64,000 nucleotides of DNA from a virus, in the IMG/VR virus record IMGVR_UViG_3300022602_000031, positions 96,001-160,000 of that record. One strand, 5' to 3'. Under the pieces are notes generated by a model. The model did not search any database, was not told the origin of the DNA, and saw nothing but the letters and a program-made list of their open reading frames with translations. Below are positions 35,863-44,665 of this stretch, piece by piece (the first letter of the stretch is position 1; every line of letters starts with the position of its first letter). Made by a program: the position numbers and the translations under genes.

Positions 35863-37389
35863 ATGCGTAATTTAATCGACCTATTAGAAACCCCACAACT
35901 CGACGAGGAATCTGTGCTTTCTGCCGCCCAAATCAACAAACGTTTTGATATGTTTATTGCCCACGTTCGTGCCGGCAAACCTTTTTATCTAGTTGACGGA
36001 ACTCCGGTTATTCCAAATCCCGAAGAAGCAGATAGATTTGAACAACTCAAAGCAGAGGGGAAATTCAACGGTCGCATTGATATTGAAGATACAAATGGTC
36101 GTATCTGGAGTACATCGCAATTTTTAAAGACTAGAGATTTCGGCGGACAAGCTATTCCGCCGGGCCAAGAACCACAGCAGGCAGTAACACAAACACAACC
36201 AGGTGTAGCACCTAGTGGTGCTAGCAGTTACTCGGTTGCTAAAAAAGAATTTAGTCCAACGGTATTAGGACTGGCCGGAAAAGTTTACAATAAAGATCAA
36301 TTGTCCGTTGCCGCTCAATCAGCAGTGATTACAAAAACATCAAATCGTCCAGCACTACAGGCAATCTTATTAGAGTTAATTGAAGTAGCACAAGGAGTTA
36401 AAACTAGTTTAAGTCCTGAAAATCTTGCCAATTTTAACTCTGACGCAAAGAATAAAATCAGTCAAGATTTTGGCGAAGTACTAGCACCTATTATGTTAGC
36501 CAAGGGCGAGGAAATGATCGAGTTTCCGGCCGCTGGTAATTTTCCGTTAGTTGACGTAGTTGTGGGCGCAAACAAATATAGTGTAAAAAGTTTGACTGGC
36601 TCGGGCACAAGTTTTTCGAGCATTGTTGAATTGTTAGATAAGTTTGAAAAAACTATTGCCAGTGACAAAGATCAACAAAAATTATACGATTTAATTAAAC
36701 ATTATAAACCTGGTAAAGACACAGGTAAGAATGTAGACAAAATTATTCGTGCGGCAGCTCACGTTAGAATTCCTGAGTATACTACCGCAGTACAAGTGTT
36801 TGGCCACGAGTTTAATGACTATACTACACTGACAAATTTAGTCAGCGGAGTCACTGATAACAGTACAAAAAACTACGCTAAAATGTTACGAGCCATCTAT
36901 CCTATTAGTGTAGCTGGCGATTGGGGCAATCCAGTAGGACTACCTGCTGACTCTAACAAGTATGTACCAGAAATTCAAATCCCAACACGCAAAGGCGAAG
37001 CTAAACAGGCCGGATATCCAGCATTTAAAAATGACCCAGTTAAAGCCACAGCTGACATTTTAACCTATATTGTTGGAACAGGTACTCTCAATTATGTAAC
37101 ACGTGGTGAACAATCTAAAGAATATCAGGCAATGATGACTAAGATTGTTAGCCAAAGTCCAGCCTGGTTGGGCAAGATTGATATTACTAAAGATGGTGGC
37201 TTATCTATAGTAGCCAAACCATTTAGCGAATTAAATTTCAGTTTTCAATACCACGCACCTAGTCATAAGCCGGGCAACAACTTGCCAGGATTTATGGTAA
37301 TTATGGATAAACCCGGCAAGAAATCCAAAATTAAAGAAGTAGAAGAACGTGAACGTCGAATACCTGCGTTTAACCGTGAGCGCCGTTGA
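35863..37389 (+). CDS. Large late protein with a possible PD-(D/E)xK nuclease-like core
   Basis: Start MRNLIDLLE after TAAATA at 35853-58; FGEVLAP...FPLVDVVV.ANKYSVKS. Confidence 0.45.
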   Translation: MRNLIDLLETPQLDEESVLSAAQINKRFDMFIAHVRAGKPFYLVDGTPVIPNPEEADRFEQLKAEGKFNGRIDIEDTNGRIWSTSQFLKTRDFGGQAIPPGQEPQQAVTQTQPGVAPSGASSYSVAKKEFSPTVLGLAGKVYNKDQLSVAAQSAVITKTSNRPALQAILLELIEVAQGVKTSLSPENLANFNSDAKNKISQDFGEVLAPIMLAKGEEMIEFPAAGNFPLVDVVVGANKYSVKSLTGSGTSFSSIVELLDKFEKTIASDKDQQKLYDLIKHYKPGKDTGKNVDKIIRAAAHVRIPEYTTAVQVFGHEFNDYTTLTNLVSGVTDNSTKNYAKMLRAIYPISVAGDWGNPVGLPADSNKYVPEIQIPTRKGEAKQAGYPAFKNDPVKATADILTYIVGTGTLNYVTRGEQSKEYQAMMTKIVSQSPAWLGKIDITKDGGLSIVAKPFSELNFSFQYHAPSHKPGNNLPGFMVIMDKPGKKSKIKEVEERERRIPAFNRERR

Positions 37390-37414
37390 CATATAACTGT
37401 CAATTTGTTATAAT
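37386..37414 (+). promoter_or_regulatory. Consensus sigma70 promoter with extended -10
   Basis: TTGACA(37386-91), 17 bp, TATAAT(37409-14), with TG at 37406-07. ATG follows at 37421. Confidence 0.85.
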
Positions 37415-37420
37415 TACCCA

Positions 37421-38430: not shown

Positions 38431-38515
38431 GCCCCGATGGTGGAATTGGTAGACACGCTGGTCTTAGAAGCCAGTGTCGTAAGACGTGCGAGTTCAAGTC
38501 TCGCTTGGGGCACCA
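38431..38515 (+). tRNA. tRNA-Leu(TAG)
   Basis: CTGGT-CTTAGAA-GCCAG, long variable arm, TTCAAGT, CCA. Confidence 0.95.
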
Positions 38516-38531
38516 ATTAAAAGGATCTTCA

Positions 38532-40109
38532 ATGAAGCGCATAGTAATTGTAGGCGCTGGTGCCGCAGGGTATTTTACCGCGGCCGCAATTAAACGTAAT
38601 AATCCAAATTTTGATGTTGTAGTGGTCTATGATCCTAATACTCCAATTATTGGAGTTGGGGAATCTATAAATTGGACCGCTCCGTTTTTTATGCATACGG
38701 TACTAGGATTAACCGATGACCAGTGGGTTAAAAAAGCTCGATCTATATTTAAAATAGGTACAGTATATCAGGATTGGAATAATACTACAAATCCATTTAT
38801 TGCCACAGCGTCGTTTAATGCCGACGTAGATATACTTAACACTTACACACCGGGCAACATTGCCGAATGTGTTGCTAACTCATTCCTACAACAAACTTAT
38901 TCTACTACAGATCTTTGGAGACATCTAGTTACCAAAGGACTATTGCCCAATGATCCTGACAATTCTTATTTGTCTTATTCTAGTGAAAATTATTGGCTAG
39001 TGGATAAAAATAAATTACCTATTAGAAAAGGTCAACTTTGGCCTACACTTAAAAACACCAGATCAAGATATAGTTATCATATCAATGCTCCAATAGTTGG
39101 GCAAGTGGTCCATGACCTAGTCGGCGTCCCAGCTGGAGTACGCACAATTCCAATGAAACTTAGGAATGTTGTATTAACTAGCACGGGCAACATTGATTAT
39201 CTATTATTAGATAACGAAGAACAAGTAACCGCTGATTTGTTTATTGACTGTTCAGGTTTTGCTAAAGTATTGGCCCAGCATCTTCCGTTTGAATTTGACA
39301 AGCTAGATGAGTATTTTAATGATACTGCTATAGTTGGGCCACACAGCTATCAACAACCATCAGAGCGACGTAGTCATGCTTATATTCGTGCTATGGATTG
39401 GGGCTGGCATTTTTCTGTGTCAATGGATACACGTAGTGGCGAAGGCTATGTGTTTAACAGTCGCCACGGAAAAAATGTTGATCGGCTAATAGAAGAATAT
39501 TACACAAAAACTGGCAAGACAGATGTTAATTTTAGAAAAATATCTTGGCAACCAGGATATCAAAAAAATCTATTTGTTAATAACTGTATAACCATTGGAC
39601 TAAGTCAGGGGTTTGGTGATGCGTTTGATGCTAATGCTTTTTCAAATACCATGGAGCAGATTACTGAAATGGTAAAACTATTAAAAGCCGACCCAGAGTT
39701 AGTATTTGAATGGAAAGATCATTTTAATCATTTTGTTAAAGTTCGTAATGATGATATAGTATTTCGCATACAGTCGGCATTTCATCTAGCACCTAGAAAT
39801 AACACTGAGTATTGGCAAGAATTAAAAATTGCCGAAAGTAAATTTAAAACTAGAGAAAAATTTCTAAACGCAATTAATGATCCTAATCGTAGATTTCTGC
39901 CAAATCTCAAAGACTCATTTTATAACCAAGGCGCTCTTATAACAATGGCATCGCATTATGGTATACCCAACGATTTTACTATTGACGTAGATGCCAAAGT
40001 TGAAAAACTTGCAGTTGTGTATTTCAATGAACTTAGACAGTATTTTCAAAATTTAGCCGATACTGGAGTTACATCTGAAAAACTTTATACCTCTTGGTAT
40101 GCAAAGTAA
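38532..40109 (+). CDS. Tryptophan-halogenase-like flavoprotein
   Basis: IVGAGAAG, IGVGES, FKIGTVYQDW (catalytic Lys position), FIDCSGF, WGWHFS. Confidence 0.8.
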   Translation: MKRIVIVGAGAAGYFTAAAIKRNNPNFDVVVVYDPNTPIIGVGESINWTAPFFMHTVLGLTDDQWVKKARSIFKIGTVYQDWNNTTNPFIATASFNADVDILNTYTPGNIAECVANSFLQQTYSTTDLWRHLVTKGLLPNDPDNSYLSYSSENYWLVDKNKLPIRKGQLWPTLKNTRSRYSYHINAPIVGQVVHDLVGVPAGVRTIPMKLRNVVLTSTGNIDYLLLDNEEQVTADLFIDCSGFAKVLAQHLPFEFDKLDEYFNDTAIVGPHSYQQPSERRSHAYIRAMDWGWHFSVSMDTRSGEGYVFNSRHGKNVDRLIEEYYTKTGKTDVNFRKISWQPGYQKNLFVNNCITIGLSQGFGDAFDANAFSNTMEQITEMVKLLKADPELVFEWKDHFNHFVKVRNDDIVFRIQSAFHLAPRNNTEYWQELKIAESKFKTREKFLNAINDPNRRFLPNLKDSFYNQGALITMASHYGIPNDFTIDVDAKVEKLAVVYFNELRQYFQNLADTGVTSEKLYTSWYAK

Positions 40110-40134
40110 ATAACTAATCAACAACAGGAAAATA

Positions 40135-40701
40135 ATGGAACATTTTTATCAAAACATTCAAGGTTGGTTTATATATCAACCAATTTATACAGCCGCAGTA
40201 GAACTATACCCCGATGGTAGTCACTTTGTAGAAGTTGGTGCCTGGCGTGGACGTAGTACAGCGTACCTGGCTGTTGAAATCGCTAACAGTGGTAAAAATA
40301 TTCAATTTGATACTATAGACACCTGGCGCGGTAGTGATGAAGAAGTACACCAAACAGATCCTAGTGTAGTTAATGATACACTATATGATGAGTTTTTGTC
40401 TAACATAGAACCAGTTAAGCATTTGGTTAATCCTATTCGTGCTACTAGTTTAGAAGCAGTAGAACAGTATGCTGATGGTAGCTTGGATTTTGTGTTGATT
40501 GACGGTAGCCATTATTATAAAGACGTACACGCAGATATCAGTGCTTGGATTAAGAAGATCAAATCTGGCGGTATGATTGCCGGCGATGACTACGAATGGT
40601 GTGCTGAAGGCGATAAAGGTGTTAAGGGTGCAGTAAACGAACTGCTACCCGAAGCTGAAATTTATCCAGAAATTGGATGCTGGAGTTATGTCTTACCATA
40701 A
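40135..40701 (+). CDS. SAM-dependent methyltransferase (Methyltransf_24-like)
   Basis: VEVGAWRGRST, LIDGSHYY, GGMIAGDDY. Confidence 0.85.
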   Translation: MEHFYQNIQGWFIYQPIYTAAVELYPDGSHFVEVGAWRGRSTAYLAVEIANSGKNIQFDTIDTWRGSDEEVHQTDPSVVNDTLYDEFLSNIEPVKHLVNPIRATSLEAVEQYADGSLDFVLIDGSHYYKDVHADISAWIKKIKSGGMIAGDDYEWCAEGDKGVKGAVNELLPEAEIYPEIGCWSYVLP

Positions 40702-41849
40702 TGGCTGATCATCTTTGCGGATACTACAAGTGCGGACACAAAGAGTTTGGGTCTAAAGTTGATGCTTTACTATACTCAAAAATAGTAAACAAAAAAGTAG
40801 AATGGATATTTCACGACGATGTTTACCAGGCATTTGATTGGTCAACTGAGCCAGCTGGTAGTATGGATGATTATTATAATCTAAGAGCAAGAGAGTTACG
40901 CGAAAAATACGATTATATTATTATCAGTTATAGCGGCGGCGCCGACAGTGAAAATGTTTTACAAAGTTTTGTACGACAAGGACTACTAGTCGATGAAATC
41001 ATTACCAACCACCTAACCAAAGCAAATCGTTCAATTGCAGTAGCAGATGTAAACAATACACACAGTTGGAATTTCGCCTCAGAACACGAATTACAAACAG
41101 TTCCACGATTAAAATGGATAAGCGATAATTGTCCCAAAACAAAAATTACTCTGCTTGATGTTAGTGATGTAATTATTGATAGTGTAACTGATGATCAAAG
41201 TTGGTTCTTGGGTAAAAACGATCATCTTGCTCCCGGACAACTGTTTAGAAATAATTATTGGTACTTTAACAAGCTACGTCAGGAGTTTGATAAAAATAGA
41301 TCTGTTGGTATTATAACTGGTGGCGACAAACCTAGAACGTTTATCGAAAACGACATACTGTACTTGTATTTTCTTGATAGTGTTGCTAACATTACTACCA
41401 TCAATGATTTCAACAGCAACAATGATAATATTAAAACAGAACTGTTTTTTCACGGAGCAACTACTGCTCCAATGATAGCCAAACAGGTACACGTTATTAA
41501 ACGTTGGCTCGAAGCAAATCCAGACAAACAAGAATATTGGCGCAATATTACACCAGAAAAAGTTAGATTGTATCACGAAAGATTTTTGCGCCCGTTACTG
41601 TATCCTACTACTTGGGACAACAGTTGGTATCAGGTAGATAAATCTGTCAGTTGGTGGCATACCGAGTTTGATACATGGTTCAGAACAAATCCTGAATTTG
41701 CTCGGCAAAAAGAATTATGGGATAAAGGTATTATGTGGTTAGCAGATAAGCTAGGCAACCTAGTTGAAACCAAAAACGGAGTCCCGGACACTTTTGTTAA
41801 ATTTAGAAAAGTTTACCAAATTGGCACAATGAAACCTAACTTAGGTTGA
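40701..41849 (+). CDS. PP-loop (N-type ATP pyrophosphatase) family protein, paralog 1
   Basis: ISYSGGADS; homologous to 55207-56520. Start at ATG 40701. Confidence 0.6.
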   Translation: MADHLCGYYKCGHKEFGSKVDALLYSKIVNKKVEWIFHDDVYQAFDWSTEPAGSMDDYYNLRARELREKYDYIIISYSGGADSENVLQSFVRQGLLVDEIITNHLTKANRSIAVADVNNTHSWNFASEHELQTVPRLKWISDNCPKTKITLLDVSDVIIDSVTDDQSWFLGKNDHLAPGQLFRNNYWYFNKLRQEFDKNRSVGIITGGDKPRTFIENDILYLYFLDSVANITTINDFNSNNDNIKTELFFHGATTAPMIAKQVHVIKRWLEANPDKQEYWRNITPEKVRLYHERFLRPLLYPTTWDNSWYQVDKSVSWWHTEFDTWFRTNPEFARQKELWDKGIMWLADKLGNLVETKNGVPDTFVKFRKVYQIGTMKPNLG

Positions 41850-41874
41850 CACAAAAGATAAATAAATGTATAAT
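41846..41874 (+). promoter_or_regulatory. Perfect consensus sigma70 promoter of the attenuated operon
   Basis: TTGACA(41846-51), 17 bp, TATAAT(41869-74). Confidence 0.9.
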
Positions 41875-41884
41875 TGATACTATT

Positions 41885-42010
41885 ATGACACTAAGAACTT
41901 GTAAACATTCCTTATCACTACAGCCAAATCTAGGCGTGTCAGCCTATTGGCCTGCGATCGAGATGTTTACAATTAATAGCGATCGTGGATACAGAGAGGG
42001 TCTCAATTAG
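41885..42010 (+). CDS. 41-aa attenuator leader peptide containing all 20 amino acids
   Basis: Translated by hand: MTLRTCKHSLSLQPNLGVSAYWPAIEMFTINSDRGYREGLN*. The ATG lies about 4 nt from the predicted +1, with no SD. Confidence 0.7.
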   Translation: MTLRTCKHSLSLQPNLGVSAYWPAIEMFTINSDRGYREGLN

Positions 42011-42068
42011 AGTATAGTAATTAACCATATTTTAATCGAGACCCTGGACTAAACACCCAGGGTTTTTT
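41997..42068 (+). promoter_or_regulatory. Transcription attenuator: overlapping antiterminator and intrinsic terminator
   Basis: AGGGTCTC-A-ATTA(41997-42009) pairs with TAAT-C-GAGACCCT(42033-45). Alternatively ACCCTGG(42041-47)/CCAGGGT(42057-63) plus a T-run forms a terminator. Confidence 0.8.
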
Positions 42069-42087
42069 GTTTATAAAGGAGAGTAAA

Positions 42088-42264
42088 ATGTTGGACCGTA
42101 AAACTAGCAAAAAAGAGATGCCGCACTTTATCCTCTCTCAAGATGATAAAGTAGCATTAATGGAAGCAAAAATGAAACGAGTAGAAGCACAGGTAAAAGC
42201 CTTAGCAGAACTAGCGAAAGCACAAGAGTCTGCAAGGGGGTCAAAATACTCCCCACGCGGATAA
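42088..42264 (+). CDS. 58-aa coiled-coil-like protein, first gene past the attenuator
   Basis: SD AAGGAG; MLDRKTSKKEMPHF...EAKMKRVEAQVKALAELAKAQE. Confidence 0.6.
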   Translation: MLDRKTSKKEMPHFILSQDDKVALMEAKMKRVEAQVKALAELAKAQESARGSKYSPRG

Positions 42265-42532
42265 GTGGCTTGAGGTTGTGTTAAAAACCGGTGCGTTAAT
42301 ACCACGTACTATTTTTGATAAAGTGTAAAGGGAAACGAGGTCCTGCTGTACACTATAAATAACAGCAAACGGGCGGACAGTAGGATGAAACTGTGGCGAA
42401 AACGCAGGAGTATAAATTACTGGGTAGGGTATAACCCTATCATATCCTTTCATAAGAGAGGGTATTCTAAAGCATATTAGATGACGACTGGCGAGCTCCA
42501 ATTTGGATGTAACCACCCCACTTGATCCGGGG
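42251..42532 (+). ncRNA. Candidate ~280-nt structured non-coding RNA
   Basis: Long-range closing helices GGAT-AAGTGG(42259-68)/CCACTT-G-ATCC(42518-28) and GGTTG/TAACC, plus several internal hairpins; no convincing ORF. Confidence 0.4.
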
Positions 42533-42560
42533 CAATATATACTAGTGTGCTTTACAATAC

Positions 42561-42646
42561 GGAGGTGTAGGAAAATTGGTAACCCCAGTGGACTGTAAAT
42601 CCGCCGCCTTATGGCACTACTTGTTCGACTCAAGTCACCTCCACCA
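42561..42646 (+). tRNA. tRNA-Tyr(GTA)
   Basis: GGAGGTG/CACCTCC, GTGGA-CTGTAAA-TCCGC, long variable arm, CCA. Confidence 0.95.
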
Positions 42647-44636: not shown

Positions 44637-44665
44637 TTGACACAAAAGTCTCAAAATAGTATACT
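44637..44665 (+). promoter_or_regulatory. sigma70 promoter internal to the tRNA array
   Basis: TTGACA(44637-42), 17 bp, TATACT(44660-65); tRNA-Asp starts at 44674. Confidence 0.8.

Follow-up and report, generated by a model that had tools for sequence, protein, structure and literature searches.

A probable leader-peptide transcription attenuator heading a phage non-coding RNA and tRNA unit

What does a phage control when it places a consensus promoter, a 41-codon open reading frame (ORF) and an intrinsic terminator one after another at the head of a region of transfer RNA (tRNA) genes? The question is raised by the IMG/VR virus record IMGVR_UViG_3300022602_000031, a 180-kb record estimated to be ~50% complete, of which we analysed bases 96001-160000 (64,000 nucleotides (nt); hereafter the window). 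All 23 tRNA genes of the record lie inside the window. Coordinates below are window positions, and the features are on the plus strand, unless another sequence is named. An earlier reading of the bare sequence (the original prediction) had proposed this element as a candidate universal sensor of translation stress. The match that we find between leaders and their downstream tRNA sets narrows that claim: judged from sequence comparison, the element is probably a ribosome-mediated (leader-peptide) transcription attenuator that heads a phage non-coding RNA (ncRNA) and tRNA unit, with a leader that would act as a multivalent gauge of the tRNA pool it gates.

The element opens with a consensus sigma-70 promoter (41846-41874; score 12/12) consisting of a -35 box, TTGACA (41846-41851), a 17-nt spacer and a -10 box, TATAAT (41869-41874), from which transcription is predicted to start at ~41881-41882. 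The leader ORF (41885-42010) has 41 codons and a TAG stop codon (42008-42010); its ATG lies 10 nt past the -10 box and ~3-4 nt from the predicted 5' end, with no Shine-Dalgarno sequence. The 5' arm of a predicted antiterminator (41997-42009) includes the first two bases of the stop codon and can pair with a 3' arm (42033-42045) through 8 base pairs (bp) between 41997-42004 and 42038-42045 and a further 4 bp between 42006-42009 and 42033-42036. This 3' arm overlaps the 5' arm of an intrinsic terminator (42041-42068) with a stem of 42041-42047 paired to 42057-42063, a 9-nt loop (42048-42056) and a T-run (42063-42068). The encoded peptide contains all 20 amino acids, the set being complete by codon 33, and the ORF uses 32 distinct codons. 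The promoter, the ATG, the ORF with its amino-acid and codon counts, the alternative pairing and the terminator had all been named in the original prediction, and each is present in the sequence as it had described.

To compare this element with its relatives, we drew on three sets of homologues. A search with the 58-amino-acid (aa) protein encoded downstream of the terminator gave 14 distinct leader variants, collected blind to the ORF; a profile of the leader peptide gave 35 peptide clusters of 35-50 aa, already predicted by gene callers; and viral contigs scanned for the terminator motif alone, again blind to the ORF, gave 72 loci, of which 58 are unique. We also assembled 23 leader DNA variants through neighbouring genes. 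Because MAFFT set the 3' arms of the terminators out of register, terminators were scored sequence by sequence. Loci L001-L013, reached via a 390-aa protein encoded upstream of the leader, were set aside as they are not syntenic with it. The relatives of the leader come from environmental collections, and the GenBank phages contain none: in the GenBank phage collection, blastn matches elsewhere covered the tRNA-Tyr part only and tblastn with the upstream 390-aa protein found no match. An exact 19-nt pattern taken from the antiterminator arm likewise had no match.

The leader ORF is kept throughout this comparison. It is retained in all 14 variants reached via the downstream protein. In 51 of the 58 unique terminator-motif loci, a TTGAC-type promoter is followed, 6-12 nt past its -10 box, by the ATG of a 32-49-codon ORF whose end precedes that of the T-run by 52-61 nt. 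Among the other loci, four carry the ORF behind a longer 5' untranslated region with a Shine-Dalgarno-like sequence, one has a weaker -35 box ahead of it and two are truncated by a contig end. The same type of promoter precedes every homologous leader. As the ORF is kept across loci most of which were gathered without reference to it, we regard it as universal, and a short, apparently translated ORF of the kind found in leader-peptide attenuators is present in all non-truncated homologues. Its length ranges from 32 to 57 codons over the homologues; what is conserved is the ORF itself, its frame and the position of its stop codon.

Comparison of the DNA variants also reveals coding constraint. 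Frame 0 is free of stops in 23 of 23 variants, each of the other frames having 1-8 stops, and the ORF varies in length among these variants (32-50 codons), yet the reading frame and stop position are retained. Over eight independent pairs, synonymous differences (pS 0.31) exceed non-synonymous ones (pN 0.15; ratio 0.48; binomial P = 3.6e-5), and a single leader pair has seven synonymous changes and one non-synonymous change (P = 2e-4). The leader ORF thus looks translated, in line with what had been proposed for it.

The second part of the element, the choice between antiterminator and terminator, is conserved as well. Over 20 aligned leaders the 13-pair antiterminator helix is 92.3% paired, with six pairs changed on both sides; its covariation score was reached by none of 500 shuffles, pairing fell to 54% or less when the partner strand was slid, and the consensus structure returned by RNAalifold is the antiterminator. 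In 38 of 49 ORF-blind leaders the stop codon lies inside the arm, as it does in the window, its surroundings (positions -12 to +5) pairing with a segment at the 5' arm of the terminator (13-19 bp, z < -2); the sequences of the distal antiterminator helix vary from family to family. In the remaining leader family the arm is set a few codons, up to ~20 nt, ahead of the stop. The terminator has a predicted energy of -14.4 kcal/mol in the window and of -13 to -16 kcal/mol in all but one of the 23 variants. In 49 of 49 leaders, the nascent transcript folded as far as the terminator loop adopts the antiterminator, and when the ORF is masked, as it would be by a ribosome at the stop codon, the terminator forms (mean -15 kcal/mol). 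The two structures are therefore mutually exclusive, the 5' arm of the terminator being able to pair alternatively in the antiterminator, and the predicted stop codon lies in or beside the 5' arm of the latter. This architecture, in which the stop codon sits in one arm of an antiterminator in competition with a terminator, had been proposed from the window alone and is here found to be conserved and covarying. The leader folds contain no anti-antiterminator (1:2-type) hairpin, and the two helices found inside the ORF, described below, do not involve the antiterminator arm; read-through is therefore expected when the leader is translated slowly or not at all, and termination when it is translated promptly. 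One metagenomic variant (L028, 1389-1480) has mismatches both in the terminator stem (-7.6 against ~-14 kcal/mol) and in the antiterminator, which may be due to decay of this copy or to misassembly.

These parts suggest the following mechanism. Host RNA polymerase would start at the consensus promoter, and a ribosome would load on the near-leaderless 41-codon ORF. If decoding kept pace, the ribosome would arrive at the stop codon and cover the 5' arm of the antiterminator, so that the terminator hairpin would form and transcription would end at 42063-42068. If no ribosome were present, or if it lagged at any codon ahead of the arm, the antiterminator would form first and the polymerase would read on into the small protein gene, the ncRNA and tRNA-Tyr and, in relatives, into long tRNA arrays. 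A leader that carries the amino acids of the gated tRNAs would be a gauge of that pool, providing either tRNA supply on demand or product feedback, and the phage would probably make these tRNAs mainly when ribosomes decode slowly. We infer that translation sets the choice of structure, and we infer likewise the direction of the response and its physiological signal.

In the window, the first gene past the terminator (42088-42264) encodes the 58-aa coiled-coil-like protein, which is conserved in relatives and has its own Shine-Dalgarno sequence (42076-42083); the gap between the T-run and this gene is too small for a promoter. It is followed in the same transcription unit by a conserved structured ncRNA (42265-42560), which is also conserved in L015-L017 and has no match in Rfam, and by tRNA-Tyr (GTA; 42561-42646), called by both ARAGORN and the Rfam tRNA model and the first tRNA gene past the attenuator. 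Across the class, same-strand tRNA genes lie within 4 kb downstream in 49 of 52 loci, with 393 such genes in total and none on the opposite strand, which bears out the claim that the element heads the phage tRNA region. The first tRNA often lies 110-260 nt past the T-run with no sigma-70-like promoter between, and since there is none, expression of the array in these promoter-free loci must depend on read-through; two loci do have such a promoter.

The ncRNA is probably the first product of read-through. In relatives it measures ~170-300 nt and lies between the attenuator and the first tRNA, often with no intervening protein gene; it is directly 3' of the terminator in L063, L074, L080, L102, L119, L124 and L126, and it abuts the tRNA array in many relatives. 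Its copies share the motifs AACGAGGTCC and AAACGGGCGGA and a long-range pair of GTATTAAAGCA with TGCTTTAATAC. In L082, L086, L108, L117 and L123 the slot of the 58-aa protein is filled by another small protein (~55-60 aa, starting MTDF.KLNDRIV or similar), seen within the first 200 nt past the terminator.

The strongest indication of what the leader reads comes from comparing it with the tRNA genes that follow. Of 175 tRNA amino-acid kinds, all but 4 are represented in their own leader; when leaders are shuffled among the 15 clusters, 13.6 +/- 2.5 are missing, and none of 20,000 permutations gave a value as low as 4. At the level of anticodons, 17 of 200 have no readable codon in their own leader, compared with 31.9 +/- 3.0 in the permutations (again 0 of 20,000 as low). 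The amino acids absent from a leader are those that its tRNA array also lacks. Class-wide, the amino acids served by the downstream tRNA genes are as a rule encoded in the leader ahead of them. The window's element is one instance: 19 of its 20 distinct anticodons, including all three Leu, both Gly and both Ser isoacceptors, have a readable codon in the leader, Arg-TCG being the only one without, although this match is insignificant alone given the peptide (P = 0.16).

This rule also places the completeness of the window's leader, on which the idea of a universal sensor had been built, in context. All 20 amino acids in 41 codons have a probability of 0.013 under a random-codon null and of 0.0046 among 41-aa windows of this phage's proteins, and 2 of the 239 ATG-initiated ORFs of 32-48 codons in the 180-kb contig reach 20 amino acids, the leader and one other. 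Because of these chance levels, completeness at the single locus is insignificant after multiple testing, and the weight of evidence rests with the homologues. The use of 32 distinct codons, considered as a further oddity, was rejected as such (P = 0.16, random-codon null).

Among the homologues, a complete set of 20 amino acids is found in 19 of the 35 peptide clusters, and 24 of the 38 other members of the window's leader family are complete. Simulations along the tree that started from the window peptide and used site-specific rates gave 4.5-5.5 complete members with global frequencies and 9.8 +/- 3.6 with per-column frequencies (P <= 0.001 under both), although the real significance of these tests is lower because the nulls ignore evident mosaic recombination between leader halves. 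The 16 class-wide peptide clusters are more diverse than the random-codon null (mean z +1.2, 14 of 16 positive, P = 7e-5); symmetry of the hairpin inside the ORF was rejected as the source of this diversity, as a structure-aware null gives the same expectation. The excess of complete leaders thus holds for the window's family, but completeness is not a class property, the ORF-blind leaders holding 15-20 kinds of amino acid and many of them only 15-18. Because the match is mainly one of amino-acid identity, leaders ahead of nearly complete arrays, as here, are near or fully complete.

Some amino acids stand out individually. Trp, Met, Gln and His are over-represented in the leaders; Cys and Tyr are at chance. 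Selection for Cys was considered and rejected, as its position shifts in the window's family and its class-wide presence is 0.72 against 0.71 by chance. An attenuator specific to Tyr, serving tRNA-Tyr, was rejected as well: each leader has only 1-2 Tyr codons and Tyr is present no more often than expected.

Several observations weigh against the attenuator reading. The leader starts without a Shine-Dalgarno sequence 3-4 nt from its predicted 5' end, which leaves its translation less than certain. Each amino acid mostly has 1-2 codons per leader, and classical attenuators use codon runs, so that a response to the loss of one tRNA is uncertain. For four tRNA amino-acid kinds the leader ahead of the genes has no codon; no preference was found for exact Watson-Crick cognate codons of the phage tRNAs, the match being mainly at the level of amino acids; and the window's leader holds Phe, Lys, Pro and Gln, for which the 180-kb fragment (about half of the genome) has no tRNA genes. 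In the window itself, a late-gene module with DctP-like and peroxiredoxin-like genes and a promoter at 44637 separate tRNA-Tyr from the large arrays, and because of this intervening module and promoter, direct control may stop at the 58-aa protein, the ncRNA and tRNA-Tyr. Finally, a near-invariant hairpin inside the ORF, an invariant Trp codon and the conserved loop of the terminator all fall outside what the attenuator model accounts for.

As to the first of these objections, the missing Shine-Dalgarno sequence is not a strong argument here, because two long ORFs in this genome look leaderless. Both have a consensus promoter (at 37386-37420 and at G000:C1:170965-171000) and an ATG exactly 6 nt past its -10 box; one is DNA methyltransferase-like and encodes 303 aa, the other 104 aa. 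Judging from these, the phage seems to use truly leaderless mRNAs for early genes. As for the terminator loop, its 9 nt (ACTAAACAC and near variants) are conserved in 72 viral loci across very divergent leader families. Terminator loops are not usually conserved in this way, and this one may have a further role, for instance in contacting a protein or an RNA or as a site of processing.

That same loop, together with part of the antiterminator loop, is conserved in sequence in the way that seeds of small RNAs (sRNAs) often are, and it leads to a different explanation, in which the locus is a small peptide gene or dual-function sRNA at a constitutively leaky terminator, with a ~185-nt transcript or its peptide acting alone and read-through at a fixed level. 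The very strong promoter would yield abundant short RNA, and the peptide is under purifying selection, as this explanation would have it. We nevertheless consider it unlikely, since it gives no account of a stop codon that forms part of a covarying helix in competition with the terminator, of leader composition that tracks the downstream tRNA set, or of an architecture that is kept although peptides are unalignable between families.

The structure inside the ORF raises two further alternatives. Minimum-energy folds contain a long-range helix, P1 (41899-41908 paired with 41963-41972), that encloses a hairpin, P2 (41923-41951), the two together making up a conserved long hairpin of ~75 nt within the ORF. 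P1 is occupied by different sequence pairs in different leader types, as judged by eye, and P2 is nearly invariant according to RNAalifold and coincides exactly with the conserved core of the peptide. P2 may serve as a pause hairpin. These features could instead belong to a riboregulator made of RNA only, in which the P1/P2 domain binds a ligand, a protein or uncharged tRNA and thereby sets the antiterminator or terminator, the ORF being secondary. We hold this to be slightly less likely still: the ORF is present in every family despite indels, with only frame 0 free of stops and an excess of synonymous change; P1 and P2 do not overlap the antiterminator arm in the folds; no riboswitch, T-box or leader model of Rfam matches even at E = 10; and a match of amino acids to a tRNA set would be meaningless for an untranslated RNA. 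The single Trp codon (41948-41950) suggests instead a sensor centred on Trp, or on nascent-chain arrest, in which this codon or the chain stalls the ribosome in answer to one particular signal, for instance how much tRNA-Trp is charged. The codon is invariant in alignment A4 and kept in almost all leaders of the class: Trp is present in 15 of 16 leader clusters (leaders of L062-L128), a fraction of 0.94 where 0.46 is expected, and it is retained though the surrounding peptide is unalignable between families; the array behind the leader often opens with tRNA-Trp. Even so, there is one Trp codon only, its distance to the stop varies between 11 and 25 codons in a sequence context that is unconserved between families, one family is entirely without Trp, and the match of leader to tRNA set covers all amino acids, and to this explanation we give the least credence of the three.

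Within the attenuator reading, we also considered what the gauge might be for. One idea is a circuit of counter-defence, in which cleavage or depletion of any single host tRNA that the phage replaces, for example by anticodon nucleases or other defences aimed at tRNAs, would stall the pioneer ribosome and turn on the phage's replacement tRNAs, so that the circuit would be induced solely on need. We regard such a role as possible but doubtful, and the link to anticodon nucleases in particular is speculation.

Other features of the locus were examined through its neighbours and through database searches. The attenuator is flanked upstream by the gene for the 390-aa protein, which has no family match, and downstream by the small gene, the structured RNA and tRNA-Tyr. 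Searches of Rfam at E up to 10 returned no family for the leader or the ncRNA, and no riboswitch, T-box or leader model; neither the leader peptide nor the 58-aa protein matched a family in Pfam or PHROGs. Further upstream (38505-40701), one gene resembles flavin-dependent tryptophan halogenases (Pfam PF04820, E = 1e-56) and another encodes a methyltransferase (PF13578), a cargo that is unusual for a phage. ARAGORN called no transfer-messenger RNA (tmRNA) gene in the window; it called permuted tmRNA genes in two contigs of related phages, L055 (11173-11613) and L001 (6677-7045), and the one in L055 ends at the leader promoter.

Taken together, the tRNA genes of a whole clade of large freshwater phages (at least 70 viral contigs) appear to be gated by a translated test sequence that includes the amino acids those tRNAs carry. 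If this is true, it would explain how these phages dose their own tRNAs, and it would provide a natural multivalent sensor covering nearly all amino acids as well as a compact part of ~220 nt, promoter included, that reports decoding speed. The question of why phages carry tRNAs would also become directly testable with reporters. To our knowledge, tRNA genes have not been placed under leader-peptide attenuation, and full-text literature searches turned up no account of phage tRNA genes regulated by attenuation, nor of a leader containing all amino acids.

In classical attenuators (trpL, hisL and pheL, and the multivalent thrL and ilvL), a ribosome at the stop codon of the leader masks an antiterminator arm and the terminator forms, whereas a stall upstream leads to read-through. 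The element described here resembles them in its short leader ORF and in the predicted masking of the 5' arm of the antiterminator by a ribosome positioned at the stop, and the multivalent ones likewise sense several amino acids. Unlike the classical systems, it would regulate phage tRNA and ncRNA genes and not biosynthetic enzymes, it has a near-leaderless start instead of a Shine-Dalgarno sequence, and it matches no Rfam leader model; unlike the trp and his attenuators, it has no run or enrichment of one cognate codon, its leaders being more diverse than expected, and no 1:2 hairpin. The general scheme of leader-peptide attenuation is restated in passages of PMC1183508.

Two other kinds of system offer parallels to what would be sensed. 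T-box riboswitches also sense tRNA supply and choose between antiterminator and terminator, but they bind uncharged tRNA directly and without translation, whereas the ORF here is under coding constraint; neither a Stem I specifier loop nor a T-box motif was found in the leader, again with no Rfam match at E up to 10. According to passages of PMC9226507 and PMC12121999, respectively, the Bacillus vmlR leader and the upstream ORF (uORF) of E. coli toiL are short uORFs that report ribosome slowing of many causes and relieve premature termination. The leader described here would be similar in logic to these general sensors of translation stress. As those passages present them, however, vmlR and toiL gate bacterial resistance or toxin-antitoxin genes and answer antibiotics, toiL by way of Rho, whereas the output here would be a set of phage tRNA genes that the composition of the leader matches.

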